This document shows, piece after piece, positions 38,074 to 62,288 of a DNA stretch of 64,000 nucleotides. A program made the translations under genes and the position numbers. Source of the stretch: a virus (taxonomy: Duplodnaviria > Caudoviricetes); IMG/VR virus record IMGVR_UViG_3300032226_000905, positions 22,276-86,275 of that record; one strand, 5' to 3'. Below the pieces are notes generated by a model, which was not told the origin of the DNA, searched no databases, and worked only from the letters and a program-made list of their open reading frames with translations. Within the stretch, counting starts at the first letter, position 1. The number at the start of each line of letters is the position of its first letter.

Positions 38074-38742
38074 TCAATTTTGGATCAGACTATCAGCCAT
38101 AGGAAATATCGCCGAAATTGCCTTGGCACAGGCCAACGCTATCAGCTGGTGTTCTTTCTGTGTGCCGTTAGCTGAACGCAGCTCAATAAAGTGTATCCAT
38201 GAGCGTAGTGTTCCATTCATATACAAGCGACTTTCTATAAGGCCTTCTGGTAGAACAGCTCGGGCCTGTTCTTTGGCTATGCCTTTAGCGATAGCCCATT
38301 GATAGGCACTTCTTGCGTAGTCAATGACCTGCTGTTGCTGATATTCCCAATCTCGTTGTAGGCGTTGATCATCCGTTTTGACTGAGTTCTGTCTGTTTTT
38401 TGGGTCTTGAAGTCGTGCTTCTCTAACCACGAACGAGAGGTCTTGAGTAGGGTCAGCATATCGCTGACTGAATTCTTGAAAACTGAAACTTCTGTGTCGC
38501 AGGATCTGTCGGGCGATGTCTCTAGTAGTTTCGATTTCAACGCAGGCTGAGACCATTTCAAGTGGGCTCCAGTGTTGGTGTTTGACCAGGTATCGGATGA
38601 GTTTGTCTGATGTCTCGGTGTTAAATTGGTTTGCGGGATTGCTGACACGGGCGCAATACGCAATGAGTTCCTGCGCATCTGTGATGCCCAGATCTGCAAA
38701 TTCTGATGTTGGTTGTGAATAGGATACCAAACGTACATTCAT
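38074..38742 (-). CDS. thyX: Flavin-dependent thymidylate synthase
   Basis: HWSPLE, RQILRHRSFSFQEFSQRY, RAVLP, LRSWIHFIELR. Confidence 0.95.
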   Translation of the reverse strand: MNVRLVSYSQPTSEFADLGITDAQELIAYCARVSNPANQFNTETSDKLIRYLVKHQHWSPLEMVSACVEIETTRDIARQILRHRSFSFQEFSQRYADPTQDLSFVVREARLQDPKNRQNSVKTDDQRLQRDWEYQQQQVIDYARSAYQWAIAKGIAKEQARAVLPEGLIESRLYMNGTLRSWIHFIELRSANGTQKEHQLIALACAKAISAIFPMADSLIQN

Positions 38743-39296
38743 TATTTTTCCTTTATAATAATATCAAAGTTTACCACAGACCTAGGATATTTTTTAGGAA
38801 TACCTCCTCCATGATAAAGTGTGCCATCGAATACCAGCACTCTTCCTTTTTTAGGACTAACTCGTTGGGTAATATTTCCCTGGCTGTCAAAAAAAACAGT
38901 ATCTCCGTCGCTGTCGTTTAGATAGTATAGTACTACCATATGAGGAAAATTGCAATCCACGTGTGGTGCATAATGTTCTAATTTTGTTTCATAGGGCAGT
39001 ATCAGATACAATCTTGCTAATATAACTGCCTTGAGAATCCAATCAAAATGATCGCAGACTATCTGCGGTATAAGACCAAAATTTTCAAGATGCGAACTGG
39101 TCTGTGTATCTGATTTAAGGACATGCACAAAACTGATAGGATTACTTCCGTCCTCTAACGCTGTTGATTCGTACTTGACTTTAAAATCGATCATAGGATG
39201 CATAACTTCGTCATCCACAGAAGTTCGACCTAGAGTGATCAACTCAAAATAATCCTGCAGATGTTTTGGAATCAGATCATCAAATACTTGAATCAT
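38742..39296 (-). CDS. 2OG-Fe(II) oxygenase
   Basis: PHVD...YYLNDSDGDT..F...PKKGR.LVFDG..YH. Confidence 0.8.
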   Translation of the reverse strand: MIQVFDDLIPKHLQDYFELITLGRTSVDDEVMHPMIDFKVKYESTALEDGSNPISFVHVLKSDTQTSSHLENFGLIPQIVCDHFDWILKAVILARLYLILPYETKLEHYAPHVDCNFPHMVVLYYLNDSDGDTVFFDSQGNITQRVSPKKGRVLVFDGTLYHGGGIPKKYPRSVVNFDIIIKEK

Positions 39297-39299
39297 TGA

Positions 39300-39773
39300 T
39301 TATGTTTCTTTTAAAATCTTCATGATCTTTTCTTTTTCTAAAAGATCTCGTTCTAGTTCCATGTATTGATTACGCAGTTCTTTTAACTTATCCCAACGTT
39401 CTTCTAGTTCTGGATTTGGTTTAAGTATACCTAACCGCTCCTCGATTTTCTCTATGGATTCGCTCAAACTCTTGCCGCCTATCTTGATATCACTACCAGG
39501 CTTCATATCAATCCCTTCAGTGGTAATACTGACTGTGGAATCATTAGCAAAGTAGGTCGAATATATCGAAGATGTTCCTGAACTGGTCGTATAACCTCCT
39601 ACAGTGGATCCAGGATAGTTACCATAAGTTACTCTAGATGGCAATGATATCGTAGAGATACCACCGAGAGAATTATTTAAACTTGATACACTATACGAAG
39701 GTTGCGTCGTAGACCAATCGCTGACATTGATAGTAACAGTGCCGCTACCGTCTTCTATATTTTCTTCATCCAT
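39300..39773 (-). CDS. Hypothetical protein
   Basis: Ser/Thr-rich N-terminus, coiled-coil C-terminus. Confidence 0.55.
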   Translation of the reverse strand: MDEENIEDGSGTVTINVSDWSTTQPSYSVSSLNNSLGGISTISLPSRVTYGNYPGSTVGGYTTSSGTSSIYSTYFANDSTVSITTEGIDMKPGSDIKIGGKSLSESIEKIEERLGILKPNPELEERWDKLKELRNQYMELERDLLEKEKIMKILKET

Positions 39774-39774
39774 T

Positions 39775-40335
39775 TTATTTGATTCCTATGATCATAAATC
39801 TTCGGAAACTCCAGTTAGGATAGGTAAACAGCTTTTCTCCGGTAAAAAAAGTTTCAGATAGATTAAATTCTTTAACAAACTCGTCTAAATTGCTATGGCA
39901 TTCTGTGTGATCTTCGTGAGGCATATCGTTGCTCTGCAATACTACCAAGCAGTCTTTGGGTATGTTTTCAAACCATTTTCGAGACTCGATGTGTTCTACA
40001 CTGGTATTGATCACAGTGTCAAAATCATCGATAGTGTAATGAAAGTCGTTGGCATCGCTAGTTATACTCTTGAACTGCCAGTCCTGCCATTCCCAAGAGT
40101 TGTTGATCTTATCAGCGATTTTTTCAACTTCGGGATCAATATCTAGGCTACGAAAATTTTTGATTTTCATTCGGTTACGAATTCGCAGTATGAAGTTTGT
40201 TAGACCATACCAACCACCTAGGCAAAGTATCTGTCTAGGTTGAGCCAGCAGATTGAGTTCTACGACTTTTTCCAGCGACTCAGCTAACCATACCTTGCTG
40301 AGAACTTGACCGCTGGAAAAAGCATCGAAGTTCAT
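39775..40335 (-). CDS. Class I SAM-dependent methyltransferase-like protein
   Basis: LGGWYG motif I, SLDIDP, DAN, INTSVEH. Confidence 0.7.
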   Translation of the reverse strand: MNFDAFSSGQVLSKVWLAESLEKVVELNLLAQPRQILCLGGWYGLTNFILRIRNRMKIKNFRSLDIDPEVEKIADKINNSWEWQDWQFKSITSDANDFHYTIDDFDTVINTSVEHIESRKWFENIPKDCLVVLQSNDMPHEDHTECHSNLDEFVKEFNLSETFFTGEKLFTYPNWSFRRFMIIGIK

Positions 40336-40336
40336 A

Positions 40337-40531
40337 TTACTTGGCCTTGGCTTCTTTGCGGGCGTTCTTTTCTGCTGTGATTTCGTTGCGGCGTGCTTTG
40401 ATCAGTTTGGCAGCTTCTTGCAGAGCTTTACGAGCACGAGTACCTGCGGCTGAATTACCACCTGTGAATTTAGCATCTTCTGCTAGAAATGTTTCAAATT
40501 GAGTTTTTAGTTGTTCTACTGTGTTTGACAT
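40337..40531 (-). CDS. Histone H1-like Hc1-family small basic protein
   Basis: GNSAAGTRARKAL matches the Hc1 core GNKAA..RVR. Confidence 0.7.
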   Translation of the reverse strand: MSNTVEQLKTQFETFLAEDAKFTGGNSAAGTRARKALQEAAKLIKARRNEITAEKNARKEAKAK

Positions 40532-40574
40532 TTTGTTTTCCTTATAAAATGTGTCTAATACTTATCGTAGTAAA

Positions 40575-40685
40575 TGGTGTGGCCGGTAGGTTTCGAACCT
40601 ACAAAGGCTACGAACTATGTCAGCGCCCCGTCCCCTTTCCGAACTATGGGCTCGGCGGGAGCTTTGCCAATTTGCTCACGGCCAC
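40575..40685 (-). ncRNA. 111-nt tRNA-like RNA with an expanded anticodon region
   Basis: Acceptor stem GUGGCCG/CGGCCAC + ACCA; D-arm AGC-AAAUUGGCAAA-GCU; T-arm GUAGG-UUCGAAA-CCUAC; ~55 nt between D and T arms. Confidence 0.7.
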
Positions 40686-40690
40686 AGCTT

Positions 40691-40719
40691 ATTATATACT
40701 AAAAAAATACATAATGCAA
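40691..40719 (-). promoter_or_regulatory. Sigma70-type promoter of the tRNA-like RNA
   Basis: TTGCAT-17nt-TATAAT ending 5 nt before G1. Confidence 0.65.
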
Positions 40720-40792
40720 TAATTTTAAAAAATTTTTTAGGAAAATTCTAGCTAGATATATAGTATAGATATTTTATTTTTAAGGAAATCAA

Positions 40793-41812
40793 ATGAAACT
40801 AAAACTTTTACCATTACTATGTCTTTTTGGAATTTCTACGGCCTACTCTCAGGTTTCAGTATATGGTGTTATCGATACCAGTATCCAATCTTATAATAAC
40901 GGAACTACTAGTTTTACTAGAGCAGCTGACAGTCAATACAGCACGAGTCGTTTGGGATTTCGAGGAACAGAAGACCTCGGAGGCGGACTAAGTGCCTTTT
41001 TTCAAGTGGAAGGTCAATTAAATCCTGCTACAGGTTCTATGGGATCTACTACAGTAACTACCAATGAAATTTTTAATAGAGACGCATACGTTGGTATCAA
41101 ATCTCCCGTGGGATCTATTAGAATGGGACGAACTGATGTGGCTTTGGTAGGAGAGATGGATTTATTTGTATCACAATCTGGAAACTTTGGTATGCATCCA
41201 ACTAACGGTACCAGCGTTGAATTGGGTACCGATCAAAAAAACGTGGTCAGATATGACAGCCCAGTTTATCGAGGATTTCAACTTATAGTAGGTCATGCTA
41301 CTAATAATGTAGGAGCAACCACGGATGCCGTAGCGGATCAAAATGGAGTCGCTCTAAGATATGAAGTAGGCAAACTAAAGGCCGGAGTAGGTCATCAGAA
41401 AAATCAAGGTGTAGGTGTGGCAGCACGTGAGACCACGACTGCAGGATTAGCCTATGATTTTTCTATTTTGTCAGTTGGTACCGCATATGCAAGGGGTGAT
41501 AATTCGACCACTACTGATGTGACTAGTTCGACATGGGTAACCTCAGTAAGGGTACCGTTGCAGCAACAGTATGCTGCACATGTCGTATATGCGCACAGCT
41601 CAAATGGTTCCAGCACTACTGATAACAAAGGCAACGGTGTTACATTAGCAGTTACTAAAAATTTAAGTAAACGCACTGCATTGTATGGCGCCTATACCAA
41701 AGTCTATAATCAGACTAATTCATCAATGGCTATGTTCAACGCTACTTCTGCTCCGGCAACTGCCGGCTTGAATACCAGTTCATTAGGACTAGGAATTAGC
41801 CATACATTCTAA
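40793..41812 (+). CDS. Gram-negative trimeric porin (betaproteobacterial type)
   Basis: Signal peptide, VSVYGVID, SRLGFRGTEDLGGGLSAFFQVE, LSKRTALYG, C-terminal LGISHTF. Confidence 0.93.
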   Translation: MKLKLLPLLCLFGISTAYSQVSVYGVIDTSIQSYNNGTTSFTRAADSQYSTSRLGFRGTEDLGGGLSAFFQVEGQLNPATGSMGSTTVTTNEIFNRDAYVGIKSPVGSIRMGRTDVALVGEMDLFVSQSGNFGMHPTNGTSVELGTDQKNVVRYDSPVYRGFQLIVGHATNNVGATTDAVADQNGVALRYEVGKLKAGVGHQKNQGVGVAARETTTAGLAYDFSILSVGTAYARGDNSTTTDVTSSTWVTSVRVPLQQQYAAHVVYAHSSNGSSTTDNKGNGVTLAVTKNLSKRTALYGAYTKVYNQTNSSMAMFNATSAPATAGLNTSSLGLGISHTF

Positions 41813-41820
41813 TTGATGTT

Positions 41821-42753
41821 ATGTTAAAACTATTGTTGATTTTATTTTTAGGAGTGTCTGCTTTTTCTACAAAGGCAGACACTGCCAACAAATTGCCAAA
41901 AGATGTTAGTATTATAGTTCCGTACGGACCTGGCGGAATTTCAGATGTACAGATAAGACATCTGACACAGTGGCTTTCGAAAAAAGGAATAAATTTAAAT
42001 CCTATTTTTAAACCCGGGGGCAACAGCACATTAGCTGCCAATGAACTGATATCATCAAATAAAGATGGCTCTGTGTTGATGATAAATTCGACTAGTAACT
42101 CGTTATTAGCTGAACAGAGATTAGGTAAGAAGGTGATTGATCCAATAATATCTACTGGCGGTACTGGTCAAGTAATGATAACTTTTTCTGGCAGTAAGTA
42201 TGAAAAATATGAAAATTTTATCAGCGCATTACAGAATTCAGATCCAGATATAAAGATAGGTTGGCATTCAGTAGCTACTGTTTTGAATCTTCACCAACTT
42301 TCTTCTAGGACCGGAGCGTTTAAACCTTTACTGATTCCTTACAAAACTTCTACAGATTCTAGCAGAGATGTTGCAGGACGACACTTACCTTTGGCATTAG
42401 TACCTTTGGCCACAGCCATGCCGTGGTTAGAATCGGGCAAAGTTAAAGTAGTTTTTGGTTTCATGCCAACATCGGGAAAATCTGGATTGCCAACTGATGT
42501 GATCGATTTGAAATCTAGAATTCCATCGTGGACGCATGATGAAATATTTTTTATAGGTTTACCCCCAGACACGGATAAAAAAATCTCGAGAATATGGTAT
42601 CAACTATTGGAAGAATGGTTGAACGATAAAGAAACTGAAGAAGTATTCAAGAAAGCATATTTTGGTAAGGATGTTAAAAATGCAGATCAAATCGTTTCTG
42701 TGATTAAACATCAAGGTACGATGATTAAAAAGTTTAATGTAGACATTAAATAA
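41821..42753 (+). CDS. Tripartite tricarboxylate transporter substrate-binding protein (Bug/TctC-like)
   Basis: Signal peptide, IIVPYGPGGISD, KPGGN, DGSVL. Confidence 0.75.
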   Translation: MLKLLLILFLGVSAFSTKADTANKLPKDVSIIVPYGPGGISDVQIRHLTQWLSKKGINLNPIFKPGGNSTLAANELISSNKDGSVLMINSTSNSLLAEQRLGKKVIDPIISTGGTGQVMITFSGSKYEKYENFISALQNSDPDIKIGWHSVATVLNLHQLSSRTGAFKPLLIPYKTSTDSSRDVAGRHLPLALVPLATAMPWLESGKVKVVFGFMPTSGKSGLPTDVIDLKSRIPSWTHDEIFFIGLPPDTDKKISRIWYQLLEEWLNDKETEEVFKKAYFGKDVKNADQIVSVIKHQGTMIKKFNVDIK

Positions 42754-42756
42754 TAC

Positions 42757-42945
42757 ATGAAGACTGAAATCTCAGGAATGAAAACCAGACTGTGGAAAGA
42801 GGGAGTTTTACCTCCCTTGGATGCCAAGCGTCCTAGATGTAAAGTCCTATACTGCTACGATGGAAAAAATGGTATATTAGATGAGGACGACACAGACTTT
42901 GTGGATTGGCTCATTGTTATAGCCTATGAAACAGAGAAAAAATAA
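42757..42945 (+). CDS. Small hypothetical protein
   Basis: 62-aa ORF coupled to the next gene. Confidence 0.45.
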   Translation: MKTEISGMKTRLWKEGVLPPLDAKRPRCKVLYCYDGKNGILDEDDTDFVDWLIVIAYETEKK

Positions 42946-43718
42946 TGGATCCAAAAATTTACGAATCAAGAGCTAAGTATCATTCTCTACCTGCTGATTT
43001 TCAATATCAGGGAGCTGAAAAATATCAAAGCAATTTAGAATATATCAAAGAAAATTTCAGCAGTTATCATTTTGATAAATGGAAAAAAGAAGAAGAAGGA
43101 GATTGGTATCATCAGTTAGGAAGATTTGAATTAGATCCAGAGATACCAAAAATCATTCCTTGGCTGATTGAAAAATCTAAAGAAGTAGGTTGGACCGAAC
43201 TATCAAAAAAAGGAGCGCATCCGGGCTTTCCGGGAGGAGTGAGTCCTCTCCAGGATCAAGAAGATTACGATTTAGAACAAAGCGGAGTAAAAAATGATTT
43301 TGTTCAAATGGTCCCCGAGCCAGACATGTGTAATATTCCTGCTCTTCAAAAAATGGGTGAATATTGGAAATTTAAAAGACTAAGAACCAGAGTCCATGTA
43401 CAAATGCCAGGTCAGCTGTTTACTTGGCATGTGGATAAACTTTGGCACAGGAATCCGTTAGCCCCGCATAAAATGTCTAGAATGGTTATATTTTTAGAAG
43501 ATTATGAACCGGGACAGATAATGGTCTATGGTAATTCTGTTCTAACACAGTGGCGTGCCGGTGATGTACATATTTTTGACACGTTAAATATTCCTCACTG
43601 TACTGCAAATATGAGTTATAAGCCTAGAGTGGTAATGATTATAACAGCAGTTCGTACAGACGAGACTGATAAAATTCTAAAAGACTGCACCGCAGATACT
43701 ATACATCGATATACTTAA
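42945..43718 (+). CDS. Asp/Asn beta-hydroxylase-like 2OG-Fe(II) oxygenase
   Basis: PGQLFTWHVD, WRAGDVHIFD, IPHCTAN, PRVVM. Confidence 0.8.
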   Translation: MDPKIYESRAKYHSLPADFQYQGAEKYQSNLEYIKENFSSYHFDKWKKEEEGDWYHQLGRFELDPEIPKIIPWLIEKSKEVGWTELSKKGAHPGFPGGVSPLQDQEDYDLEQSGVKNDFVQMVPEPDMCNIPALQKMGEYWKFKRLRTRVHVQMPGQLFTWHVDKLWHRNPLAPHKMSRMVIFLEDYEPGQIMVYGNSVLTQWRAGDVHIFDTLNIPHCTANMSYKPRVVMIITAVRTDETDKILKDCTADTIHRYT

Positions 43719-44745
43719 ATTGTTTTACTAGATATTCATCTACAATTACAGGCTCGAAGTTTGATGAGTCTGTTTTTTTGATAATGTCTTGAAGTAGATA
43801 TTGATTAGTAGTACTTAAACCCCAATTCAGATTTGGAACCACGGCCGCACAATTCAAAAGAACTGAACTAGCAATTCCAGTCTCTGCGATCTTTCCGGAT
43901 AGGTTTACATTTAATCCTAGATCATTTGCCAAGTTTGCAGCTTCGATTATCTTGAAGGGATCACTGAATTTTATCAGTTTTAAATTTACTCCTTGACCGG
44001 TGCCCAGACTCATCATTTCGCGAATATCTTTGCAGGAAAAAATGTCCTGATCTAGACATACACTTATACCCAGATCGAGAGAATTACAGTCTTCAATATA
44101 GATTATATTATCTCTAGAAGTTTCTTGAACAAATGTTTGAAAAGATTCTGTAGAAATGCCGCTGTTTGAATCAACGCATAGATTAGAATCATGTATTATT
44201 TCTCTTAGACGATGTATTAGTAAAATCTCATCGTTGATGTCGTGTTTGCCTATTTTGACTTTAAAAAATCTAGTACCGGACAGGTAACAATCTTCAGCTT
44301 CTTTAAGATCACTGTCTATAGTGTCGTTAGCTAATATTCTTAAACTTTTAAGATCATTTCTGATTTTTTTTCCTAATAGTTGATGTAGTGAAATATTATT
44401 AGCTCTACAATATAAATCTAGTACAGCCGAATACACTGCAAATTTGGCACCAGTATTGCCATAGAACATTTTATCTATGCTAGAGATGATTTTTTTATAA
44501 TCTGAAATTTTTTGATTGATAATAAGGCTTCGAAACCAACGATTGATGATTTCGGCCATTCCAGAAACTGTATCGCCAGTCATTCTGGGGGCTGATGCAG
44601 ATTCACCCCAACCGACCAGTCCATCTGATTCAATTTTGACTATTATATTTTCAGCATGACTTATGCACCTACCAGAAAGAAACATAGGCTTCTTCAGCGG
44701 AATTTTTAAAACAATCGTTTCGAGGTTGGTAACTTTTAAAGACAT
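43699..44745 (-). CDS. Enolase superfamily, MLE / dipeptide-epimerase-like protein
   Basis: GLVGWGES, KVKIG, VDSN, IED, NLKLIK. Confidence 0.8.
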   Translation of the reverse strand: MSLKVTNLETIVLKIPLKKPMFLSGRCISHAENIIVKIESDGLVGWGESASAPRMTGDTVSGMAEIINRWFRSLIINQKISDYKKIISSIDKMFYGNTGAKFAVYSAVLDLYCRANNISLHQLLGKKIRNDLKSLRILANDTIDSDLKEAEDCYLSGTRFFKVKIGKHDINDEILLIHRLREIIHDSNLCVDSNSGISTESFQTFVQETSRDNIIYIEDCNSLDLGISVCLDQDIFSCKDIREMMSLGTGQGVNLKLIKFSDPFKIIEAANLANDLGLNVNLSGKIAETGIASSVLLNCAAVVPNLNWGLSTTNQYLLQDIIKKTDSSNFEPVIVDEYLVKQFKYIDV

Positions 44746-44755
44746 TTAAAGTAGT

Positions 44756-45937
44756 TTATTGAACGAAATCTAGAATCTTAAATCCTTTAGTTTTTAATTT
44801 TCTTAGTCCTGCATTGTAATTTGTTTTTTCTAGAAGCAAAGAAGTGTCTATATCGCTTTGAATACTTTTAACTGTTGAGCTATAGACATCTCTAGCCTCT
44901 GCGAAATCAGACATTTCATACATCCAATAATACCAATCACTGCGATCCACATTTGGTTTTCCTACTTGGAAAGTTGAGGGGTTCCAAGAATCTCGATACA
45001 GAATATCCTTGAAAAGTTTATTCTGCAATTTTAAAAGTCGATTTACTCTCAATGCTGAATTTTGATCATCTTTATTGATAAGACAATTTTTAAATTTTTT
45101 GTCAATGGCGACATTTAACGCAGTTTGATATGCCTGTTCCATGGGCAGGATAGGAAAATCCGCAGTCCAATAAAACGGTTCTTTAGTTCCTAACTCTGGA
45201 TTTACGATCAACATATCCATAGCATGATCTAAAAAATGAAAATATATTCCATCGGAATTTTCTGATAGAACCGGTTTTTCTATTCCGAAAATGTGAGCAG
45301 TATTTTCTGGTTTATATCTAGCGTCGAATTTATCTATATTTGCAGACATAAAAAAGACTGCCGGAGTATAATTAGAATAGAAATAATTATTGTGATCTAA
45401 TTTTTTATTCATAGTTCCTATGATTTTTTTAGACATGAGATTCTCTGCATAATCAACTATGGTAATCTTGATCTCTGGATTAGAGTTTGATATCCTTTTT
45501 AAAACAGGTTCGATGGCATAGTCCCATTCGCTTAGAGCATTTCTAGCAGAAGTGTCGTTGGCATTAGGTGTATAAAATTTTTTGTCAGATAAAATTTTAG
45601 GCCATTTAACTACTATTTCGTCTAATTTTATTTTATGTTTTAAAAAAGTATGTAGTATATTGTAACTGTCCGATCCTCCGCTGAAGTGTAAAACTAAATG
45701 CGAATATCGATCTCTCAGTTGTTGGGCTCGTTGTTTGTAAAGATCTGGCAAAGGAATTTTTCCTAACAGAGATCTATCAAAATTTTCCCAGATATGATTA
45801 TGATAGTAAAAGAAAATTTCATCGGTCTTCAAAATTGAGGCATATTTAAAGGCTTCGAATTTTCTAAGAAACCCTCGGCCATTGACAATCCAGCAACCAT
45901 ATTTTGAAAGAAGTTTGGGATATTTGAGATGATCCAT
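44756..45937 (-). CDS. PP-loop (asparagine-synthase-like) ATP pyrophosphatase, type A1
   Basis: YKQRAQQLRDRY..LVLHFSGGSDS, FGIEKP, FYWT. Confidence 0.75.
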   Translation of the reverse strand: MDHLKYPKLLSKYGCWIVNGRGFLRKFEAFKYASILKTDEIFFYYHNHIWENFDRSLLGKIPLPDLYKQRAQQLRDRYSHLVLHFSGGSDSYNILHTFLKHKIKLDEIVVKWPKILSDKKFYTPNANDTSARNALSEWDYAIEPVLKRISNSNPEIKITIVDYAENLMSKKIIGTMNKKLDHNNYFYSNYTPAVFFMSANIDKFDARYKPENTAHIFGIEKPVLSENSDGIYFHFLDHAMDMLIVNPELGTKEPFYWTADFPILPMEQAYQTALNVAIDKKFKNCLINKDDQNSALRVNRLLKLQNKLFKDILYRDSWNPSTFQVGKPNVDRSDWYYWMYEMSDFAEARDVYSSTVKSIQSDIDTSLLLEKTNYNAGLRKLKTKGFKILDFVQ

Positions 45938-45945
45938 AGGACAAA

Positions 45946-45975
45946 TATTTAAGCATTACTGTGTGGGTATAAATA
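45946..45975. promoter_or_regulatory. Divergent late-type promoter pair
   Basis: Minus TAAATA at 45946-45951; plus TATAAATA at 45968-45975. Confidence 0.6.
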
Positions 45976-45980
45976 TTATC

Positions 45981-47512: not shown

Positions 47513-47531
47513 GTACTACCAAACTTACAAT

Positions 47532-47834: not shown

Positions 47835-47858
47835 GATCTTTCCTAGTTTATGTTCTGT

Positions 47859-47926
47859 TATTTATCACGAAAAATTTAGGGCCGCGCCAACTAGAATTAT
47901 TTGTAGGTCTAACACTCATATAAATA
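47859..47926. promoter_or_regulatory. Divergent late-type promoter pair
   Basis: Minus TAAATA at 47859-47864; plus TATAAATA at 47919-47926. Confidence 0.6.
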
Positions 47927-47935
47927 TTTGTCATT

Positions 47936-49659: not shown

Positions 49660-49697
49660 AATTTTTTACAATGTATTTATATATTGATAATTACAGT

Positions 49698-52270: not shown

Positions 52271-52327
52271 CAATTATTTAATTTATCAGCGATCAACCCG
52301 TTGATAAATATCCTAAACAATATCATT

Positions 52328-55246: not shown

Positions 55247-55247
55247 A

Positions 55248-55259
55248 TTAAATATTTAA
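55248..55259. promoter_or_regulatory. Palindromic bidirectional late-type box
   Basis: TTAAATATTTAA in the 16-nt gap between divergent genes. Confidence 0.55.
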
Positions 55260-55262
55260 TCT

Positions 55263-56201
55263 ATGTACGACATCACTCAAAATTTCCAAAATCCTTTAGA
55301 TGAAAATTTTTCCTACGGGTACGACGGAAACCTGTATAATTTACGTAGTTCTAACAAATCAGAATTTCAATGTTATTATAAACAAGCCAAATATATTCCT
55401 ATTTCTTTTAAAGAAGAATGCATAAAGGTTTGTGAGAAAATCAGTGATTACGCAGAATCTGTAGGTAGAATACCTATGGTGTTGTTGAGTGGTGGGCTGG
55501 ACAGTGAAGTAGTTGTGAGAAGCTTTATTGAGTCAGGAAGACCTTTTCAAATAGTTTCTAATAGATTTAACAATCAGTTGAACGATCACGAAATTCAATA
55601 TGTAAAAAAGTTTTCAATTAAACACAATTTAAAAATTAAATATATAAACTTAGATATTACAAGTCTTTTGACCAGTGATAGATATTTAAAAATGGCTGAA
55701 ATATCTAGGTGTCCTTATGCAGAAATGTTGCCGACCATGGATCTTATTGATCGAGTTTACTTTGAAATGAACGGTGTTCCTGTTTTAGGCAATGGAGATT
55801 TTTATGCTTCAAAAATTGATAATGCCTGGACGTATATCGAATTTGAATATATTCTAGCATGGATGAGATATATCATTGATAAGAAAATAGCAGCAGCTAT
55901 AAATTTTTTCCAGTATACTCCAGAAATAGTATTATCTATGGCCTTAGATCCAATAGTGCATGATGCAATCATAGGAAATCAATATCCCAATGTTCGTCAG
56001 GCCAAATACGCAGTTTACAGAAAATATTGGAATGATATTGAACTAAGAACAAAATATAACGGAGCAGAATCAATACAATCGCTATGCGACGAAATAAACG
56101 AAAAATATCTTGCAGAAAATAAAATTTATACATCTAAATGGTCCAAACCATTATATCAGTTTCTTAAAAACATGATGCCGAGAGTAAACGAGATAAATTA
56201 A
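55263..56201 (+). CDS. PP-loop ATP pyrophosphatase, type B2
   Basis: FKEECI, LLSGGLDSEVV, FFQYTPEIVLS. Confidence 0.75.
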   Translation: MYDITQNFQNPLDENFSYGYDGNLYNLRSSNKSEFQCYYKQAKYIPISFKEECIKVCEKISDYAESVGRIPMVLLSGGLDSEVVVRSFIESGRPFQIVSNRFNNQLNDHEIQYVKKFSIKHNLKIKYINLDITSLLTSDRYLKMAEISRCPYAEMLPTMDLIDRVYFEMNGVPVLGNGDFYASKIDNAWTYIEFEYILAWMRYIIDKKIAAAINFFQYTPEIVLSMALDPIVHDAIIGNQYPNVRQAKYAVYRKYWNDIELRTKYNGAESIQSLCDEINEKYLAENKIYTSKWSKPLYQFLKNMMPRVNEIN

Positions 56202-56204
56202 AAT

Positions 56205-56909
56205 ATGACAAACACGATCGTACCTCCCGGTGTTAGCGGAAGATCCCAATCATATGATCCTAAAAATGTTAGTAATGAAACCTTGGCCAATGAATTAGTA
56301 TTGGCTAATTTGGGATCCTTTGAACCGTTAAAAATAAAAATCGATATCGGTCAATTTATGCGAGAGATAGAACCTTACAAAAATGCATGGGTGGATTATC
56401 TTCCAAGAACAGATAGACCAAATAATAGAAAATCTTTAGTTTTAACAAATTTAATCGGTAAGAGTCATACAGATAATCCTAGTCTTGCTCAGGCCAGCTA
56501 TGCTGCTAATAGACGCCTAAGCGAAACTGAATTTAGTTATCCTACAGAAGTCTACAATGCCTGTAGTAGTCTTAGAAGTTTTCTTGATATGTGGCAACCT
56601 TTAGGAAGAACTTTTTTAGTAAAATCTGACACTGGCGGTTATTTTGTTCCTCATAGAGATCATCCCACGATGCCGCGCGATGTTTTTAGACTGATTGTTT
56701 TTCTAAATAACTGCGGCCCCTATGACTACGATTGGTGGATGGATGATCGAAAAGCTCAGATAGAACATGGAAGAGTATATTATGTCAACACTAGACTTAC
56801 TCATCGAACTATCAGTTGGGTCAATGATAGTATACATTTAATATTAAATGTTCCCATGACTTCTGAAAATGTTGCTAAAGTGATTGCTAATTTACAACAC
56901 AGTCATTAG
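56205..56909 (+). CDS. Asp/Asn beta-hydroxylase-like 2OG-Fe(II) oxygenase
   Basis: GGYFVPHRD, GRVYYVNT..THRT, SIHLIL. Confidence 0.8.
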   Translation: MTNTIVPPGVSGRSQSYDPKNVSNETLANELVLANLGSFEPLKIKIDIGQFMREIEPYKNAWVDYLPRTDRPNNRKSLVLTNLIGKSHTDNPSLAQASYAANRRLSETEFSYPTEVYNACSSLRSFLDMWQPLGRTFLVKSDTGGYFVPHRDHPTMPRDVFRLIVFLNNCGPYDYDWWMDDRKAQIEHGRVYYVNTRLTHRTISWVNDSIHLILNVPMTSENVAKVIANLQHSH

Positions 56910-56920
56910 TTTTTCCAAAT

Positions 56921-57472
56921 TTATTTTTTAAGGACTACATAAGAGCTAAATTTTTCGTAGCTTCTTTTTAGTAATTCTAAATGTCTCTCTTTGTTTAGCC
57001 ATCCTCGTATATAAATGGTCGTTCTGCTTTCATCTTCTTTGACTCTGTGTATAGCTGAGGTTGAATTTAAAATATATCCGCACGGTACTTTTGGCAGAGC
57101 CGCAACAACATATTCTTTTCCGTTAAATGTTTCTAGACTGTCAATTTCGCCTTTAACGACGAATCTATACCCCGCAGGCTCTGTATCTAATATATGTTCA
57201 TATTCTCCATTAGAAAAATTCATGGCAGCATAAACATCAACATGCGGACCAACTTCTTTTTGCTGTATCTTGTATTGAATATTTGTAATTTTATCAAATG
57301 GTAATTGATTTAATATTTTATCAAAATTATTTTTTTTGATAACTTCGTCGCTGAGTAAAGTTGAATTCCAATATGGATTATATTTAGAAACAACAGGCGT
57401 GCCGATAAACGAATCAAATTCGATATTTTCTATTTCTATGTCTAGAGGACAAAATAAAATTTCATTTAACAT
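56921..57472 (-). CDS. 2OG-Fe(II) oxygenase-like protein
   Basis: VGPHVD, YRFV, NST.AIHRV. Confidence 0.62.
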   Translation of the reverse strand: MLNEILFCPLDIEIENIEFDSFIGTPVVSKYNPYWNSTLLSDEVIKKNNFDKILNQLPFDKITNIQYKIQQKEVGPHVDVYAAMNFSNGEYEHILDTEPAGYRFVVKGEIDSLETFNGKEYVVAALPKVPCGYILNSTSAIHRVKEDESRTTIYIRGWLNKERHLELLKRSYEKFSSYVVLKK

Positions 57473-58266
57473 ATGCAGTCGACATAATCATTTATATTTT
57501 TCAAACTGATTAAACAATTATCTTGATATTTTTCTATACTTCTCTCGATTAGAGACTCATATTTAAACCAATCAATTTTATTTGCCCAATGGAATATAAA
57601 AGTTATTTTTTTGTAATCCGGATTGAATTTACTATAGTGTTGAGTTCTTAAATTACTCCACGCAAAACTGTTAGTACCAAGTTTTGTAGATACTTCTACT
57701 GTTTTTATTTTGTCTTCAACTGATGTATTAGGAAGTACTTCTGATACCCAAAAATTATTGTTGGGATTTTTATCCATCACTATTCTAAATTCTAAAGGAA
57801 GATCCAAAAACAATGATTGATCTCGATGGGCTATTATATCTGTGGTACTAGACCATATTGATAATCCTATAATTTCTTTAAAAGGTAACTGATCATAGAA
57901 CTGTTGCCATAGATCAGGCCATTTATTTTTTATATCTACGATGTTTTTTGACCAAACTGATTTTGACGTATCGTACCAATCGGGTAGAACATCTATAGAA
58001 AGAAAACTGCTTCCTCCAGTATATTCTGTGGCCACATCTTTGTTTTGTTTTATGCTTGGAACAGCATTTTCAAAATACCAATGAAAGAAATTTTCATTGC
58101 TGAAGATAGGAATATCTAATGGAATAAATCCAAAGTTTCCAAATTTTTCTTCTAATCTGAGAATGTGTTTCTTAGTTTCTTCGTCGTAGCGATTTAGGTT
58201 GTTGAATCGCTGTTCAGTAAACCATTTTTTTTCGTCCGAAGCGTAACCGGTGTTAAATCGAGTCAT
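57466..58266 (-). CDS. 2OG-Fe(II) oxygenase-like protein
   Basis: IIAHRD, EFRIV, WSN..TQHYS. Confidence 0.62.
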   Translation of the reverse strand: MTRFNTGYASDEKKWFTEQRFNNLNRYDEETKKHILRLEEKFGNFGFIPLDIPIFSNENFFHWYFENAVPSIKQNKDVATEYTGGSSFLSIDVLPDWYDTSKSVWSKNIVDIKNKWPDLWQQFYDQLPFKEIIGLSIWSSTTDIIAHRDQSLFLDLPLEFRIVMDKNPNNNFWVSEVLPNTSVEDKIKTVEVSTKLGTNSFAWSNLRTQHYSKFNPDYKKITFIFHWANKIDWFKYESLIERSIEKYQDNCLISLKNINDYVDCIC

Positions 58267-58305
58267 ATAAGATATTTAATCTTATATGTCGATGACAAAA
58301 ATATA

Positions 58306-59682
58306 TTAGTGCAATGACGTCCAGGAACCGCCTGCTACTGCCCTTACTTTGGTTAGAGTAGTATCATAATACATCATACCATTTACTCGATTACCTGAGC
58401 CGCCTATAGCAGAATCTGCTGCTGCTTCATTGGCATATGTGGGTAATACCGGAACTGTTAGGAATTCAGTTTTTCTACCTTTGATAGATATTTTATTACT
58501 TCGACTTCCGGTCTCATCAGTGGCGCTAATATCAATTCTAGTAGGAATAACTCCAGTACTAACTACACCGTCGACAGTATGAGTTATTTCACTGGTAGTA
58601 ACATAGCTGGTGCCATCATGGGCAACAAATGTAATTTCGCTGATTTCGTCACTGGCAGCTACTGCTGTGGGCACTGTGTCAGTGCCTCTTGCTCTTCTAA
58701 AGGTCGTGTTTCTAGAATCAGCCGTAGTGTGAAATTGCTGTATAAGCAGCACAGGTGCGCCAGAAGCATATCCGTTGACTGTGACCCTTGTTGACCCGTC
58801 TAGGTTGATCAATCCTGCACTGTCGAGGTACATTCTTCTAGTCATAGTTCCACTAGAATCAGCAGTGAAAAAGTCGAGACGTCCTGGAACTGCAGTTCCT
58901 GTAATAGTTCCTTCGGTTAATCCTTTGATTGTAGCTGCAGAAACTACTGCACCTGTTGTAGTAGGTGCGTTCCAATCTATATCACCTAGAGAATCATCAG
59001 CTAATGGAATAGTCGGTGAGGAAATAGTTCCTCTTCTGCGTTGGAAAACTAGTGCCGATGAAAACGGTGAATTGTGTGTTTGTACAAGACTTATAAATCT
59101 AGAAAGCTCGTCTGACGCATAATAAAATACTTCATTATTAAAAATCGAATTACCTTGTACTGTGAGATCATTATCTACCGTAACATTTGTCTGAAATTGG
59201 ATCGGAGTATCAACTAAAATAGTACTAGATGTAGCAGAAGAAATTAGATTGGTTTCTATGTTGCCACTAACATTACCGGTGACGTTACCAGTGACATTGC
59301 CCGTAACATTACCGAGCACATTGCCATTTAAAGTCGCCGTGGTAACATTTAATACCACTGTAGATGCGCCATTGAATATTTTTTCAGTTATAACAGCATC
59401 TGCTTCTATAGTGTCGTGAGTTAAAATATCAACTCTGGCGCTTAGAGATTTAGTAGTATTATTGTATGTAAAACTGATGTTTTGATGGGTGCCTGCTAAT
59501 AACGAGGCTGCTGCTGCATCTTTGGCTTCGTTTGAGCTTATTCCTGCAAGGAGTACTCCGCCGGCTGTAGATCCGTCGCCTACACTGACTCGTTTTAATT
59601 GTGTATCATAAACTAATTCACCCACCGATGGTGTAATACTTCCGACTTCTGCGGTGTTGCCTCTGCGAAGCTGTAATGGCAT
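58306..59682 (-). CDS. Orphan tail fibre / spike-like protein
   Basis: MPLQLRRGNT and GELVYDT fibre-type N-terminus; (NVTG)n repeat; duplicated RR.RGT...P..v...D.l..i.f module. Confidence 0.7.
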   Translation of the reverse strand: MPLQLRRGNTAEVGSITPSVGELVYDTQLKRVSVGDGSTAGGVLLAGISSNEAKDAAAASLLAGTHQNISFTYNNTTKSLSARVDILTHDTIEADAVITEKIFNGASTVVLNVTTATLNGNVLGNVTGNVTGNVTGNVSGNIETNLISSATSSTILVDTPIQFQTNVTVDNDLTVQGNSIFNNEVFYYASDELSRFISLVQTHNSPFSSALVFQRRRGTISSPTIPLADDSLGDIDWNAPTTTGAVVSAATIKGLTEGTITGTAVPGRLDFFTADSSGTMTRRMYLDSAGLINLDGSTRVTVNGYASGAPVLLIQQFHTTADSRNTTFRRARGTDTVPTAVAASDEISEITFVAHDGTSYVTTSEITHTVDGVVSTGVIPTRIDISATDETGSRSNKISIKGRKTEFLTVPVLPTYANEAAADSAIGGSGNRVNGMMYYDTTLTKVRAVAGGSWTSLH

Positions 59683-59746
59683 ATTTCGACTCCTGGAATC
59701 AATCCTATCTCATATATTTATGCCTCTCCGATCAGAAGTTATAGTC

Positions 59747-59776
59747 AAAAAAATAGGGCTTCGAAAAGCCCTATTT
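59747..59776 (-). terminator. Rho-independent terminator
   Basis: Stem AAATAGGGCT/AGCCCTATTT followed by a T-run on the minus strand. Confidence 0.8.
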
Positions 59777-59788
59777 AAACTGCGTAGT

Positions 59789-60394
59789 TTAATCTACTAC
59801 GGGTCCATTTCCGTTACGAAATCCTACTTCACCACCTTCTGCTTGAATACGTGCAATAACGTCTTCAAAAAGGATAGGTGCGAAATTTGGAGTTTGTTCC
59901 ACGCAAACGCAATGATAACGGACATCGTTTTCATTACTGTACAAGACTTCTCCTGTACGTGCATCAACACCTCGGGCCCGCTTTACACGGTTTGAGTGTA
60001 GATGACCGTGAATGTTTACACCAAACCGTCCTAAACTCGCTTCGTGGACAGGAATATGACTAAGAATCATGCCGTTCATCACATGGTAAGCTCTTAGTTC
60101 GCGGAAATATACGCTATATTCTGTATCACGGAAGATATCATGATTGCCACGAATAAGTACCTTGTCCCCGTTTAATCGAGATAGAGTTTTTAGAGATTTT
60201 CGATTTATAACCACATCACCGAGGTGATAAACCTTATCCGTAGGCTTTACCTGTTCGTTCCACGCTTTGATCATAGCTTCGTCCATGTCTTCTGGATTGT
60301 CCCATGGACGCAACTTTGAACCGTCATCACGTAAGAAACGGCACACGCCTGCGTGACCAAAGTGCGTGTCGCTGACTAAAAATACGCTAGGCAT
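59789..60394 (-). CDS. Calcineurin-like metallophosphoesterase
   Basis: SDTHFGH, LGD, GNHD, SHIP, HGHLH. Confidence 0.9.
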   Translation of the reverse strand: MPSVFLVSDTHFGHAGVCRFLRDDGSKLRPWDNPEDMDEAMIKAWNEQVKPTDKVYHLGDVVINRKSLKTLSRLNGDKVLIRGNHDIFRDTEYSVYFRELRAYHVMNGMILSHIPVHEASLGRFGVNIHGHLHSNRVKRARGVDARTGEVLYSNENDVRYHCVCVEQTPNFAPILFEDVIARIQAEGGEVGFRNGNGPVVD

Positions 60395-60418
60395 AGTGCC
60401 CTCCTTTCTTAAAATATA

Positions 60419-60447
60419 ATTATAATCTCAAACGTCGATGCTGTCAA
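60419..60447 (-). promoter_or_regulatory. Sigma70-type promoter
   Basis: TTGACA-17nt-TATAAT. Confidence 0.85.
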
Positions 60448-61688
60448 GTTTGGTATGTTATAACAGCAGATTGTATGATTTTGGAGAATTTTATCTCAGC
60501 TTCTTCTAAGGTATTTCCGCTGACTAAAATAGTACCGTTATGATCGACCGCAAAATCATTTCTCAACATGCGGATCTGTTTAGATTTTGGATAGCTTATT
60601 TGATCGGCCAAATTGCTGTCCGGTAAATGCAGTTCTTTTAATGTGCCGTTTTTTAAAGGAATCATTCTTAAAATAGTAGGCTTTATATCTAGAGTATAAG
60701 TTTCATCAAATAATAACTTATTTGTCAATTTTACAGCATAATTTTTTTCACCGCTGTGTAGAAACAGTCTATAAGATACAGCAGATGTTCTAGCGGCAAA
60801 ATCGATAAAGTAAAAACGATTTTTATCTACAATAATATCAAACATAAAAGGACTATTATCTAATTCAATATCGTCAAAAAACTTTTTTATTTCTTTAATA
60901 ATAGAATTTTTAAAATCTACAGTATCAAATTTTGATGGATACACAAATCCAGTTTCGGCAGTATAGGGATAACAATCACTTTCAATTTCATACATAAAAT
61001 CGATAGATATTTCTTTATTTTTAACTATTCCAGATACTGATACCAATATTCCAGGTATATATTGTTGAATTAAATAATTGCCTCCTAGAGAAAGATATTG
61101 TAAACTTTTAAATTTAGAATTGTGTTTCTCTTGAAAGGTATGAGTTTGAAAGTTGGTATCTTGAAAAAAATCAATCAGTTGCTGTTGATTTTCAATTATT
61201 TGAACTCCTAGACTGCAGAAACCTGAAGATGGTTTTACTATACATGGAAAATTTATACTTTCAGCGATCTGATGTATTTCTTGAAGATACTCTATTTCAT
61301 CATAGATCTCCGGACACGGTACTCCGAGGTTTTTCCATATTTTGTAATATGATGATTTATTTTTTATTTTTTCTGCAGATGCACTCTGTATACCTAATAG
61401 ATTGAATCTATCGTTGATTGTTGCGATATCAGTAACCATACTATCTGCAAATAAAGGATAAATGAAATTATATCCTCGATTACAGAGCTCTTCGATTTTC
61501 TGTAATAATTCTTTTTTACTTTCAACAATACTGTACCTACCATCCAAAGATTCAATTAAAGATTCTTCAATGTCGTTTTCTACCTTGTTTGGAGATAGTA
61601 TAAAATGAACATCGAAATTATTCTGTTCTAATTTTTTAGCCATGTTTATTTGACTAGTATTTGTACAGGAAAAAATTATTTTTTTCAT
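60444..61688 (-). CDS. ATP-grasp ligase
   Basis: FPCIVKPSSGFCSLGV, LIQQYIPG, FIDFAAR. Confidence 0.82.
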   Translation of the reverse strand: MKKIIFSCTNTSQINMAKKLEQNNFDVHFILSPNKVENDIEESLIESLDGRYSIVESKKELLQKIEELCNRGYNFIYPLFADSMVTDIATINDRFNLLGIQSASAEKIKNKSSYYKIWKNLGVPCPEIYDEIEYLQEIHQIAESINFPCIVKPSSGFCSLGVQIIENQQQLIDFFQDTNFQTHTFQEKHNSKFKSLQYLSLGGNYLIQQYIPGILVSVSGIVKNKEISIDFMYEIESDCYPYTAETGFVYPSKFDTVDFKNSIIKEIKKFFDDIELDNSPFMFDIIVDKNRFYFIDFAARTSAVSYRLFLHSGEKNYAVKLTNKLLFDETYTLDIKPTILRMIPLKNGTLKELHLPDSNLADQISYPKSKQIRMLRNDFAVDHNGTILVSGNTLEEAEIKFSKIIQSAVITYQT

Positions 61689-61712
61689 CGAACTGCTGAT
61701 ATGTTTAGAATT

Positions 61713-62288
61713 TTAAATATATTCAACATCTGCCGCTAGTATGAATCTATATTGATCACTTTGTACGATGCCAGGTCTATGCCATTGATCGGATGGGTAA
61801 ATCAGCCAGTTACCGTCTGTGGGCTTTACAAAAAATTTATCATTTTTTTCGGGGCCAGAAGGTGCCATTTCTGTTCCGCAGTAATCTCGGTCTTTGACAT
61901 CTTCGGGAATATGTAGATAAAAAATTCCACTCATCATCTTGGCATTTGGATTTTCTGGATGCCAATGGTTATGCCATAATTTTTCACGATCTTCGGCACC
62001 CTGGAGATTAGTCATAAACGACCAAGCCATCATGTTAGATATTTTGGCCTCTCGACCTAGATACATGAATACTGAAAAAAGAAAACTCATTCTATATTTG
62101 AGCCAAACAGATTCTGGTCTAGCAAATATATTTTCTTTAGTCTGATATTTAGGACTGTTGGTAAAATAATTTCCGTCGGCGATAATCGATCGTATAATGC
62201 CCACAGCAGAATCATTATCCTGTTTGGTAATTACACTACTAAAATCAAATTTTCTAAAAGTGTCGTTTTGATCGATTACTGTTATCAT
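61713..62288 (-). CDS. 2OG-Fe(II) oxygenase-like protein (HxH type)
   Basis: WHNH...SGIFYLHIP, LIYPSDQWH, RFILA. Confidence 0.75.
   Translation of the reverse strand: MITVIDQNDTFRKFDFSSVITKQDNDSAVGIIRSIIADGNYFTNSPKYQTKENIFARPESVWLKYRMSFLFSVFMYLGREAKISNMMAWSFMTNLQGAEDREKLWHNHWHPENPNAKMMSGIFYLHIPEDVKDRDYCGTEMAPSGPEKNDKFFVKPTDGNWLIYPSDQWHRPGIVQSDQYRFILAADVEYI

Follow-up and report, generated by a model that had tools for sequence, protein, structure and literature searches.

What does a phage make, or remake, with a 23-kb block of putative adenylating, acylating, desaturating and hydroxylating enzymes, and do these enzymes serve one product or several? This question is raised by positions 38742-62288 of a 64,000-nucleotide stretch of viral DNA (Duplodnaviria; Caudoviricetes), which we call the window; it comprises positions 22,276-86,275 of IMGVR_UViG_3300032226_000905 and forms the last 64 kb of that linear 86,275-bp IMG/VR record. 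Coordinates below are those of the window unless another contig is named. A first-pass annotation, made from the letters alone, had read the block, hereafter the island, as one uncharacterised pathway. We find instead that the island is a composite of two separable phage-associated modules, both of which are confined almost entirely to uncultured phage contigs, and we propose that they may tailor an amide-linked acyl lipid of the host envelope.

Results

Two separable modules recur across phage contigs

The first module (A) consists of AsnB-shaped PP-loop enzymes that lack a glutaminase domain, an exported TctC-like protein and an iron- and 2-oxoglutarate-dependent (Fe/2OG) oxygenase, and in the window it also includes a porin. 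Its members here are, on the plus strand, the outer-membrane porin (40793-41812; Porin_4, Pfam 1.4e-40, with a signal peptide), the TctC/Bug-like solute-binding protein (41821-42753) and a dioxygenase of family c44 (42945-43718), and, on the minus strand, two cytoplasmic AsnB-shaped synthetase paralogs (44756-45937 and 48433-49659). The AsnB-shaped family is present at no fewer than 550 IMG/VR loci, and its 453 clusters at 90% identity are all unnamed. Among 88 loci centred on an AsnB-shaped gene, a DctP-like gene occurs in 57, a TctC-like gene in 46 (median gap 9.5 bases) and, by phmmer, c44 in nine, and the arrays often run TctC, PP, PP, DctP, TctC, DctP. The window's own record carries no DctP-like partner; this absence, like those of an acyl carrier protein (ACP), QueC and reverse transcriptase given below, holds for the 86-kb record only, which is a fragment. 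Elsewhere, DctP-like neighbours of AsnB-shaped genes (TRAP receptor family) begin at the mature domain and cannot carry a signal peptide (for example L010:11444-12463), a situation seen in L003, L010, L011 and 54 other loci; the TctC-like copies inspected all have one.

The second module (B) has the canonical order c3, Q, P200, Des, that is, a c3-family protein that is a possible acyltransferase, a QueC-like PP-loop enzyme, a GNAT-fold acyltransferase and a membrane desaturase of the delta-9 type. The window holds two copies of Q. Q1 (50080-51012, plus strand) is followed on the same strand by P200 (51009-51572), which it overlaps by four bases, and by Des (52301-53131); Q2 (55263-56201, plus) is divergent from the c3-family gene (54644-55246, minus). 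The Q family, whose proteins are 310 aa long, is found at 173 or more IMG/VR loci. In 82 Q loci the commonest neighbours are Des (65), P200 (48, median gap 0), c3 (41, placed before Q) and AspH-like oxygenases (36), followed by methyltransferase-like (33), radical S-adenosylmethionine (SAM; 30) and AsnB-shaped (28) proteins and oxygenase families X (22) and c11 (21); the rarest of those listed are family c13 (16), the fibre family (11), TctC (10) and FA_hydroxylase (10). Des is multi-copy in relatives, with up to five or six copies per locus.

The frequency of Des in the Q loci contrasts with its presence in 6 of the 88 AsnB-centred loci, which serve as an internal control (Fisher p 1e-23), and TctC shows the opposite bias, in favour of AsnB-centred loci (p 2e-8); these p-values overstate the evidence because the loci are not phylogenetically independent. 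The linkage pattern spans proteins that are only 23-30% identical, and median gaps within modules are 0-626 bases over dozens of divergent loci. In the window, modules A and B stand adjacent, together with unusually many AspH-type oxygenases and a fibre-containing same-strand run at the right end. The whole block is kept only in close relatives; beyond these, what recurs across hundreds of phages is the two modules and a changeable pool of AspH-like oxygenases. The proposal of a single 23-kb pathway therefore has to be given up, and the block is most likely a flexible accessory island made of two modules and a locally expanded set of hydroxylases. The related supposition that the genes travel together in related phages holds up, both in four related contigs (L005-L007 and L096) and, module by module, at hundreds of loci.

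The island is phage DNA

The block had been taken to be encoded by the phage, and we find that the island is phage DNA and not a host contig. The gene order of 39300-56909 is repeated by homologues in JGI contigs L005-L007 (50-85% amino-acid identity), and L096, an 87.5-kb virus record, keeps the order from the AspH-like gene through c29; in related phage records, phage genes flank the island in both directions. In Atlas, viral sequences make up 99-100% of the clusters closest to the AsnB-shaped protein and almost the whole of those closest to P200. Host contamination or mis-assembly would offer a ready account of an island whose GC lies below that of the rest of the contig and whose porin and TctC-like genes look cellular. 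We nevertheless give it a negligible probability: the gene order is repeated in two independent related phage records with flanking phage genes, the nearest Atlas clusters are viral, and two scans of 185,579 bacterial and archaeal species genomes (one per species) found no close cellular relative of the porin.

CheckV gives a completeness of 23% for the 86,275-bp record, which is therefore a jumbo-phage fragment, and the source is an uncultured jumbo myophage. Nearly all genes in the first 38 kb of the window lie on the minus strand; they include genes for T4 gp9/10-like baseplate proteins, a glycosyltransferase, an endonuclease and a thymidylate-synthase-like protein. The best cultured relatives of a 397-aa backbone protein (33075-34268) are found in PA5oct-type Pseudomonas jumbo phages (~40% identity), and the record of L096 also encodes this protein, at 67% identity. 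When the island and the structural region were compared by megablast with 50,697 phage records, neither had a close or real match. The alternation of strands and the AT-richness reported by the first-pass annotation are borne out, with 12 strand switches across the 30 genes of the island compared with about two in the first 38 kb, and a GC content of 0.31-0.39 at ~42-62 kb compared with 0.40-0.47 upstream. The drop in GC begins only near 42-43 kb, inside the left edge of the island.

Two families of PP-loop enzymes

The inventory drawn up in the first-pass annotation proved correct almost item by item (four PP-loop proteins, ten oxygenases, two His-box enzymes, two GNAT-like proteins, an epimerase, an ATP-grasp ligase, a porin, a TctC-like protein and a fibre gene), and the catalytic motifs on which it relied are intact. 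Its calls of a sulfotransferase and a methyltransferase correspond only to weak matches: the sulfotransferase-like protein (46769-47512, minus strand) reaches Sulfotransfer_3 at E 0.048 and has no PDB match, and the class-I methyltransferase-like protein (39775-40335, minus) reaches Methyltransf_25 at E 0.16 and, as a profile, PDB methyltransferases at E 0.02-0.04.

The four SGGxDS proteins form two pairs of paralogs, 44756-45937/48433-49659 and 50080-51012/55263-56201 (BLASTP E 4e-32 and 3e-32). The PP-loop is invariant in the alignments of both families, for which fold or profile matches are to AsnB, NAD synthetase and GMP synthetase. The AsnB-shaped paralogs are 28% identical and 393-408 aa long, begin MDHLK... 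and MIKLD..., and have no Cys at position 2. Their glutaminase domain is missing: the PP-loop comes already at residues 86-90 (SGGSDS at 86 in paralog 1 and at 90 in paralog 2), behind an N-terminal stub of ~60 residues. An AlphaFold2 (AF2) model of 48433-49659 (pLDDT 89) was aligned by VIA-align with AsnB (1ct9; Z 11.7, rmsd 5.2, 291 residues aligned), human ASNS (Z 10.8), beta-lactam synthetase (9.8), TsnB9 and carbapenam synthetase. These synthetase matches (Z 11.7 to 8.0, 225-291 residues) score above generic PP-loop structures (Z ~7), and the N-acetyl-sugar amidotransferase fold fits poorly (Z 4.8). The fold emerged only from the wide VIA search: Foldseek returned nothing at E 0.001, the family profile found neither AsnB nor anything significant in the PDB (best EpiD, E 0.022), and the proteins have no match in Pfam (E 0.01) or NCBIfam (E 0.1).

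Q1 (SGGIDS at 71) and Q2 (SGGLDS at 76) are 27% identical. The Pfam QueC model matches the Q family in its N-terminal part only, at model positions 3-75 of 210, with 22-25 bits (cut-off ~22), and the NCBIfam QueC score is 22 bits against a cut-off of 150. QueC carries a C-terminal zinc-binding Cys cluster; no Cys is found in the columns that are 85% conserved among 40 Q-family members. The candidate assignment of Q as a canonical QueC was rejected, as the similarity is limited to the PP-loop and there is no conserved Cys; a canonical QueC was not found elsewhere in the 86-kb record. Both PP-loop families were also compared by tblastn with the 50,697 phage records, which include cultured phages, and gave no match (E 1e-5, 1e-3).

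An expanded set of Fe/2OG oxygenases

The HxD...H triad is intact in nine of the ten Fe/2OG-type oxygenases of the island. Pfam alone recognises three of them: the oxygenase at the left edge (38742-39296, minus strand; 2OG-FeII_Oxy_3, 6.7e-7), which is weakly FlmC-like (NCBIfam FlmC 38 bits, far below the cut-off), the AspH/LpxO-family hydroxylase (47936-48436, plus; Asp_Arg_Hydrox, 3.5e-8; H101, D103 and H145 conserved) and the oxygenase at the right edge (61713-62288, minus; 2OG-FeII_Oxy_5, 2.8e-6). For the c44 protein, the alignment of relatives shows invariant H162, D164, H218 and R228, and the AF2 model (pLDDT 70) has Foldseek matches to EvdMO1, prolyl hydroxylases and AspH (E ~1e-6, probability 1.00). 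The double-stranded beta-helix fold was thus checked on one of the ten, the others being assigned by Pfam or by hhalign of family alignments drawn from 82 related loci.

These alignments relate c13 (53797-54651, minus; H178, D180, H225 and R237 conserved) and c29 (56205-56909, plus; H150, D152 and H200 conserved) to AspH, at 98.2% and 95.9%, respectively, and c11 (51548-52273, minus; H149, D151, H206 and R219 conserved) both to family X (97%) and to AspH (81%). Through c11 and two related families (60-97%), the three X paralogs are tied to the AspH-type families. Copy 1 (53112-53810, minus) was assigned by paralogy and has conserved H120, D122 and H186; copy 2 (56921-57472, minus) matches it at 100%, and copy 3 (57466-58266, minus) matches copy 2 at 84%. 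The distal His of copy 3 is replaced, which suggests that this protein is probably inactive or repurposed. The triad is conserved in families AspH, c11, c13, c29, X and c44; a search of the PDB with the family X profile gave no usable match. Among the bacterial Asp_Arg_Hydrox proteins whose function is known are the lipid hydroxylases LpxO and OlsC.

Desaturase, acyltransferases and exported proteins

Des (Pfam FA_desaturase, 6.6e-15; three transmembrane (TM) segments) carries the His boxes HRAITH, HRAHH and HNTHH, which are conserved in 40 homologues and fit the HxxxxH, HxxHH, HxxHH pattern of delta-9 desaturases; translation may in fact begin at the Met at residue 10. It passes the Pfam model and scores 92 bits with NCBIfam DesA_fam (cut-off 400) over 239 of 385 positions, and its relatives are annotated by JGI as stearoyl-CoA or acyl-lipid 9-desaturase. 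Its motifs argue for a membrane delta-9-type desaturase, with activity and regiospecificity as predictions. A search for relatives of Des among the viral desaturases (vFAD) and other cyanophage proteins found none at E 1e-3. The second His-box protein is a membrane-bound di-iron enzyme of the FA_hydroxylase superfamily (45963-46436, plus strand; Pfam 2.3e-15) with two TM segments and complete HxxxH, HxxHH and HxxHH boxes. The carotenoid ketolase and hydroxylase CrtW/CrtZ were considered for these two short enzymes and dropped, because Des has the delta-9 box pattern and its sole NCBIfam match is the DesA family.

P200 itself has no Pfam match, and a library-wide search found 734 family representatives (clusters at 50% identity). 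A profile of 78 family members (A10) matches GNAT structures in the PDB at E 4.7e-6 and 2e-5, three GNAT Pfam models each match one or two of the 78, and Atlas places the protein with viral N-acetyltransferase-like clusters (0.96). A paralog of P200 at 49671-50099 (plus) is also GNAT-like (hhalign 97.8% to the P200 family). The c3-family protein (hhalign 98.8% to c3) reaches a GNAT Pfam model at E 0.017; it has no PDB match, and none of 51 homologues carries a Pfam domain. Profile searches of the PDB with the c3-like family and with the sulfotransferase-like protein gave no usable match.

The TctC-like protein scores 19 bits with Pfam TctC (cut-off 27), and a hidden Markov model built from 61 phage relatives matches it at 6e-43; phage relatives that cluster with it carry PF03401 matches. 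Its N-terminus, MLKLLLILFLGVSAFSTKA, is hydrophobic, as in relatives, and constitutes an export signal. Neither TctA nor TctB was found in the island, where no open reading frame (ORF) has more than three TM segments. Two further enzymes are encoded on the minus strand. The enolase-superfamily protein of the MLE subgroup (43699-44745; MR_MLE_N and MR_MLE_C) resembles epimerases or racemases of dipeptides or N-acyl amino acids, with NCBIfam scores of ~90 bits for Ala-Glu epimerase, muconate cycloisomerase and OSBS that are all below the cut-offs, and an ATP-grasp carboxylate-amine ligase (60444-61688; ATP-grasp_4, 5.8e-12) reaches no NCBIfam equivalog.

Discussion

A possible amide-linked acyl lipid of the host envelope

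What is directly observed is which enzyme classes are present, that their motifs are intact, which proteins are exported or membrane-bound and which genes are linked; from this we infer that the island tailors an amide-linked fatty-acyl lipid in the envelope of the infected cell, a reading that we put forward tentatively and at somewhat less than even confidence. Since the top partner of Q is Des, and since a GNAT protein, an FA_hydroxylase-type enzyme and hydroxylases of the LpxO/OlsC family stand with them, the simplest common substrate is an acyl chain on an amine. The integral-membrane Des, as the most constant partner of Q, points to a lipid; overall, the evidence favours a lipid-like target, and a nucleic acid is the least supported. 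During infection, the GNAT proteins would attach a fatty-acyl group to an amine, for example that of an amino acid, with the GNAT acyltransferase and Q possibly on one transcript, and the PP-loop and ATP-grasp enzymes would adenylate free carboxylates to form amides. Des, the FA_hydroxylase-type enzyme and the AspH/LpxO-like oxygenases would then desaturate and hydroxylate the acyl chains. In addition, the porin and the exported TctC-like protein may import a carboxylate building block, and the MLE-type enzyme could act as an epimerase on N-acyl amino acids or dipeptides. The outcome would be an acyl lipid, amide-linked and tailored, that resembles an aminolipid or lipid A; its benefit, at a guess, would be either an altered cell surface or a phosphorus-free lipid.

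Several points weigh against such a lipid. ACP (PF00550) is unmatched at E 1 in the window's record and at E 0.1 in three related records, all four being fragments, and the searches recognised no enzyme of the OlsB, acyl-CoA or lipid A type, nor any orthology to known aminolipid or lipid A enzymes; the substrate of the pathway is one that we infer. The modules are separable, with AsnB-like genes in 28 of 82 Q loci and Des in 6 of 88 AsnB loci, and may therefore not share a product, and the loci counted are not phylogenetically independent. Moreover, a fibre gene lies inside the block, AspH and P4H folds also act on proteins, and in Pelagibacter phage Mosig, the best cultured analogue, the AspH and desaturase genes lie amid sugar-type enzymes. 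The more general claim is that uncultured aquatic phages in their hundreds carry a pathway by which an acyl lipid of the infected cell, with an amide link, double bonds and hydroxyl groups, is built or remodelled by means of two virus-associated, amide-forming PP-loop families without a described function; this we regard as doubtful. If true, it would add a new and possibly phosphorus-free class of virus-made envelope lipid, by which the surface of the cell is altered or phosphate is released to supply a giant genome.

Other readings of the island

The tight adjacency of AsnB-like and TctC-like genes can also be read as a route to a soluble amide, in which the porin and TctC-like protein raise the uptake of organic or amino acids and the AsnB-shaped, ATP-grasp, epimerase and oxygenase enzymes convert them, either as an asparagine-type assimilation that feeds phage synthesis or towards a bioactive compound, including a beta-lactam-like one, while Des would be a separate gene for membrane fluidity. 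In line with this, 57 of 88 loci elsewhere pair the AsnB-like gene with an adjoining cytoplasmic DctP-like partner, c44 accompanies module A, the enolase-type enzyme resembles dipeptide epimerases, and the fold matches include beta-lactam and carbapenam synthetases, which cooperate with Fe/2OG enzymes. Although a synthetase-like fold and oxygenases are present, none of the beta-lactam pathway partners (crotonase/CarB, CEAS, thiamine-diphosphate (ThDP) enzyme) was recognised among the island ORFs; nor does the island encode TctA or TctB, and the tight linkage of Q, GNAT protein and membrane desaturase is left unexplained, so we judge this route unlikely, if worth keeping in view. It is quite unlikely that the enzymes tailor a surface glycan, by amidating, hydroxylating, methylating and sulfating sugars or acyl groups of host lipopolysaccharide (LPS) or capsule and so blocking superinfection. 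The same proposal has been made for pelagimyophage host-recognition clusters, whose islands carry LPS-type genes (PMC7029224); the Mosig island has an ArnB-like aminotransferase, a carbamoyltransferase and an epimerase beside its AspH and desaturase genes, in L008 an AsnB-like gene is adjoined by two GT1 glycosyltransferase genes and one for a sugar epimerase, and 38742-39296 is weakly FlmC-like. Yet no glycosyltransferase, sugar-nucleotide enzyme or flippase lies within the island, and neither the poor fit of the N-acetyl-sugar amidotransferase fold nor the NCBIfam search points the AsnB-shaped proteins to such a substrate.

The right end of the island raises the further idea that oxygenases, ATP-grasp and amide ligases decorate the Mtd-like fibre or other virion proteins and thereby tune receptor binding or stability. 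Here a same-strand run (56921-62288) joins the fibre gene to an Fe/2OG gene, the ATP-grasp gene and two X oxygenases, the fibre family occurs in 11 Q loci, often adjoining an AsnB-like gene, and AspH and P4H folds do hydroxylate proteins. However, an integral-membrane desaturase and hydroxylase and an exported binding protein are ill-suited to a cytoplasmic protein substrate, most module loci have no fibre gene within 8-10 kb, and fibre and accessory genes may merely share a permissive hypervariable region; we see virion decoration as distinctly unlikely. That hypervariability could extend to the whole island, as a collection of independently acquired auxiliary genes that each act alone, which would agree with the alternating strands, the low GC, the composition that varies between phages and the separable modules. 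Recurrent tight adjacency within modules over dozens of divergent loci, together with the four-base overlap of Q1 and P200, makes such a lack of any shared substrate improbable. As for nucleic acids, the partial Pfam QueC match of Q and the tRNA-Met at the island edge might suggest that PP-loop enzymes and oxygenases extend a 7-deazaguanine DNA modification or modify tRNA; this is very improbable given that the QueC likeness is confined to the PP-loop region, that the Q family has no conserved Cys and that Q is most constantly accompanied by a membrane desaturase and a GNAT protein.

Relation to known systems

The lipid reading draws on the aminolipid and lipid A systems by analogy. OlsB, OlsC, OlsE, OlsG and LpxO have been assigned to the N-acyltransferase fold, Asp_Arg_Hydrox, FA_hydroxylase-type and methyltransferase superfamilies, and the same superfamilies occur in the island, which makes these systems a coherent model, by analogy, of its possible workings. 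Unlike the ornithine-lipid and lipid A pathways, the island matches no OlsB, OlsA or LpxO model, and those pathways have no PP-loop and ATP-grasp amide ligases. The AsnB-shaped proteins share SGGxDS and the fold with the synthetase domain of AsnB, beta-lactam synthetase, carbapenam synthetase and TsnB9, enzymes that adenylate a carboxylate and form an amide; they differ from these in their 393-408 aa with the ~60-residue stub, the lack of Cys2, the lack of Pfam and NCBIfam matches and their viral nearest clusters. Orphan Bug proteins without TctA/TctB are common, and the TctC-like protein resembles the TctC/Bug receptors in its fold family, its signal peptide and the lack of TctA/TctB; unlike these, it is phage-encoded, paired with AsnB-shaped enzymes and often arrayed with DctP-like proteins that have no signal peptide.

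As a kind of locus, the island resembles the "host recognition cluster" islands of pelagimyophages and cyanomyophages, in which fibres are mixed with Asp/Asn beta-hydroxylase-like, radical SAM, methyltransferase, acetyltransferase, transport and LPS-type genes (PMC7029224): both are large, poorly syntenic islands in aquatic T4-type myophages. In Pelagibacter phage Mosig EXVC030M, for instance, the fibre genes lie beside an adjacent pair of Asp_Arg_Hydrox and FA_desaturase genes. In contrast, the backbone here is PA5oct-like and not of the Kyanoviridae, there are no glycosyltransferases inside the island, and its two PP-loop families are without a tblastn match (E 1e-5, 1e-3) in Mosig or the other cultured phages of the 50,697 records. 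Cyanophage delta-9 lipid desaturases (vFAD) are active on C16 lipids (PMC5776448), and Des is likewise a phage-encoded membrane desaturase with three His boxes; it is only distantly related to vFAD, however, is multi-copy in relatives and is tied to genes for a PP-loop enzyme and a GNAT protein. The statement that no such cluster had been characterised stands for the PP-loop modules, since we found no description in the literature of either the AsnB-shaped/TctC/DctP module or the c3-Q-GNAT-desaturase module, and falls for the kind of island and for delta-9 desaturases, both of which are published.

Much of the coding capacity that is still unexplained in aquatic T4-type and jumbo phages lies in their hypervariable islands, which have so far been interpreted only loosely, as host-recognition or LPS genes; one such island is here split into two tightly linked modules found in hundreds of contigs. 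The gene sets 49671-53131 and 54644-56909 are small units suited to expression and assay. A defined product would give a function to several large "hypothetical" viral families and would show a chemical reworking of the host envelope or metabolite pool.

Neighbouring genes and further observations

Related islands carry enzymes that are not in the window. In L005, the closest island relative, an APS-kinase/KTI12-like P-loop protein (13520-14353) lies near the sulfotransferase-like gene and the edge of the island (L005:1-230) encodes an adenylating enzyme of the AMP-binding (ANL) kind; these two extra genes fit sulfation and acyl activation. The islands of L008, L174 and L175 add SPASM/B12-type radical SAM proteins, Rieske-like proteins, TauD dioxygenases and DUF2061.

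Three small minus-strand genes of the island have no family assignment: a 157-aa protein (39300-39773) without a Pfam or PHROG match has a homologue in L007, a 114-aa protein (46428-46772) is conserved in L005 and a 100-aa protein (47532-47834) in L005 and L007. A PHROGs search of 17 unassigned ORFs gave no match. The tail-fibre or receptor-binding protein (58306-59682, minus) has an Mtd_N domain (Pfam 4.1e-10; PHROG tail fibre). A diversity-generating retroelement around it was considered and dropped, as no reverse transcriptase (PF00078) is matched in the 86-kb record (23% complete). Its upstream neighbour encodes a calcineurin-like metallophosphoesterase (59789-60394, minus; Pfam match, NCBIfam PdeM-like below the cut-off). 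A scan for promoters and terminators gave total counts not above shuffled expectation; single sites include a perfect TTGACA-17-TATAAT promoter match (60447-60419, minus) ahead of the phosphoesterase gene and a terminator-like site with an 11-bp stem (59776-59751, minus) immediately upstream of the fibre gene.

At the left edge, base 38742 belongs both to the thymidylate-synthase-like gene (38074-38742, minus) and to the end of the island's first Fe/2OG gene; the left edge is therefore probably co-transcribed with the nucleotide-metabolism block. A tRNA-Met (CAU) gene (62546-62620, minus) lies just beyond the right edge. ARAGORN called no tRNA at 40575-40719, in the gap that precedes the porin gene. 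In the baseplate/fibre region, an 896-aa protein (13091-15781, minus) has a C-terminal subtilase domain (Peptidase_S8, E 1e-24), and a 2537-aa protein (17840-25453, minus) with a T4 gp9/10 N-terminal domain also resembles ubiquitin-activating enzymes over residues 799-851, where the E1 FCCH domain scores above the Pfam cut-off (E 3e-9).

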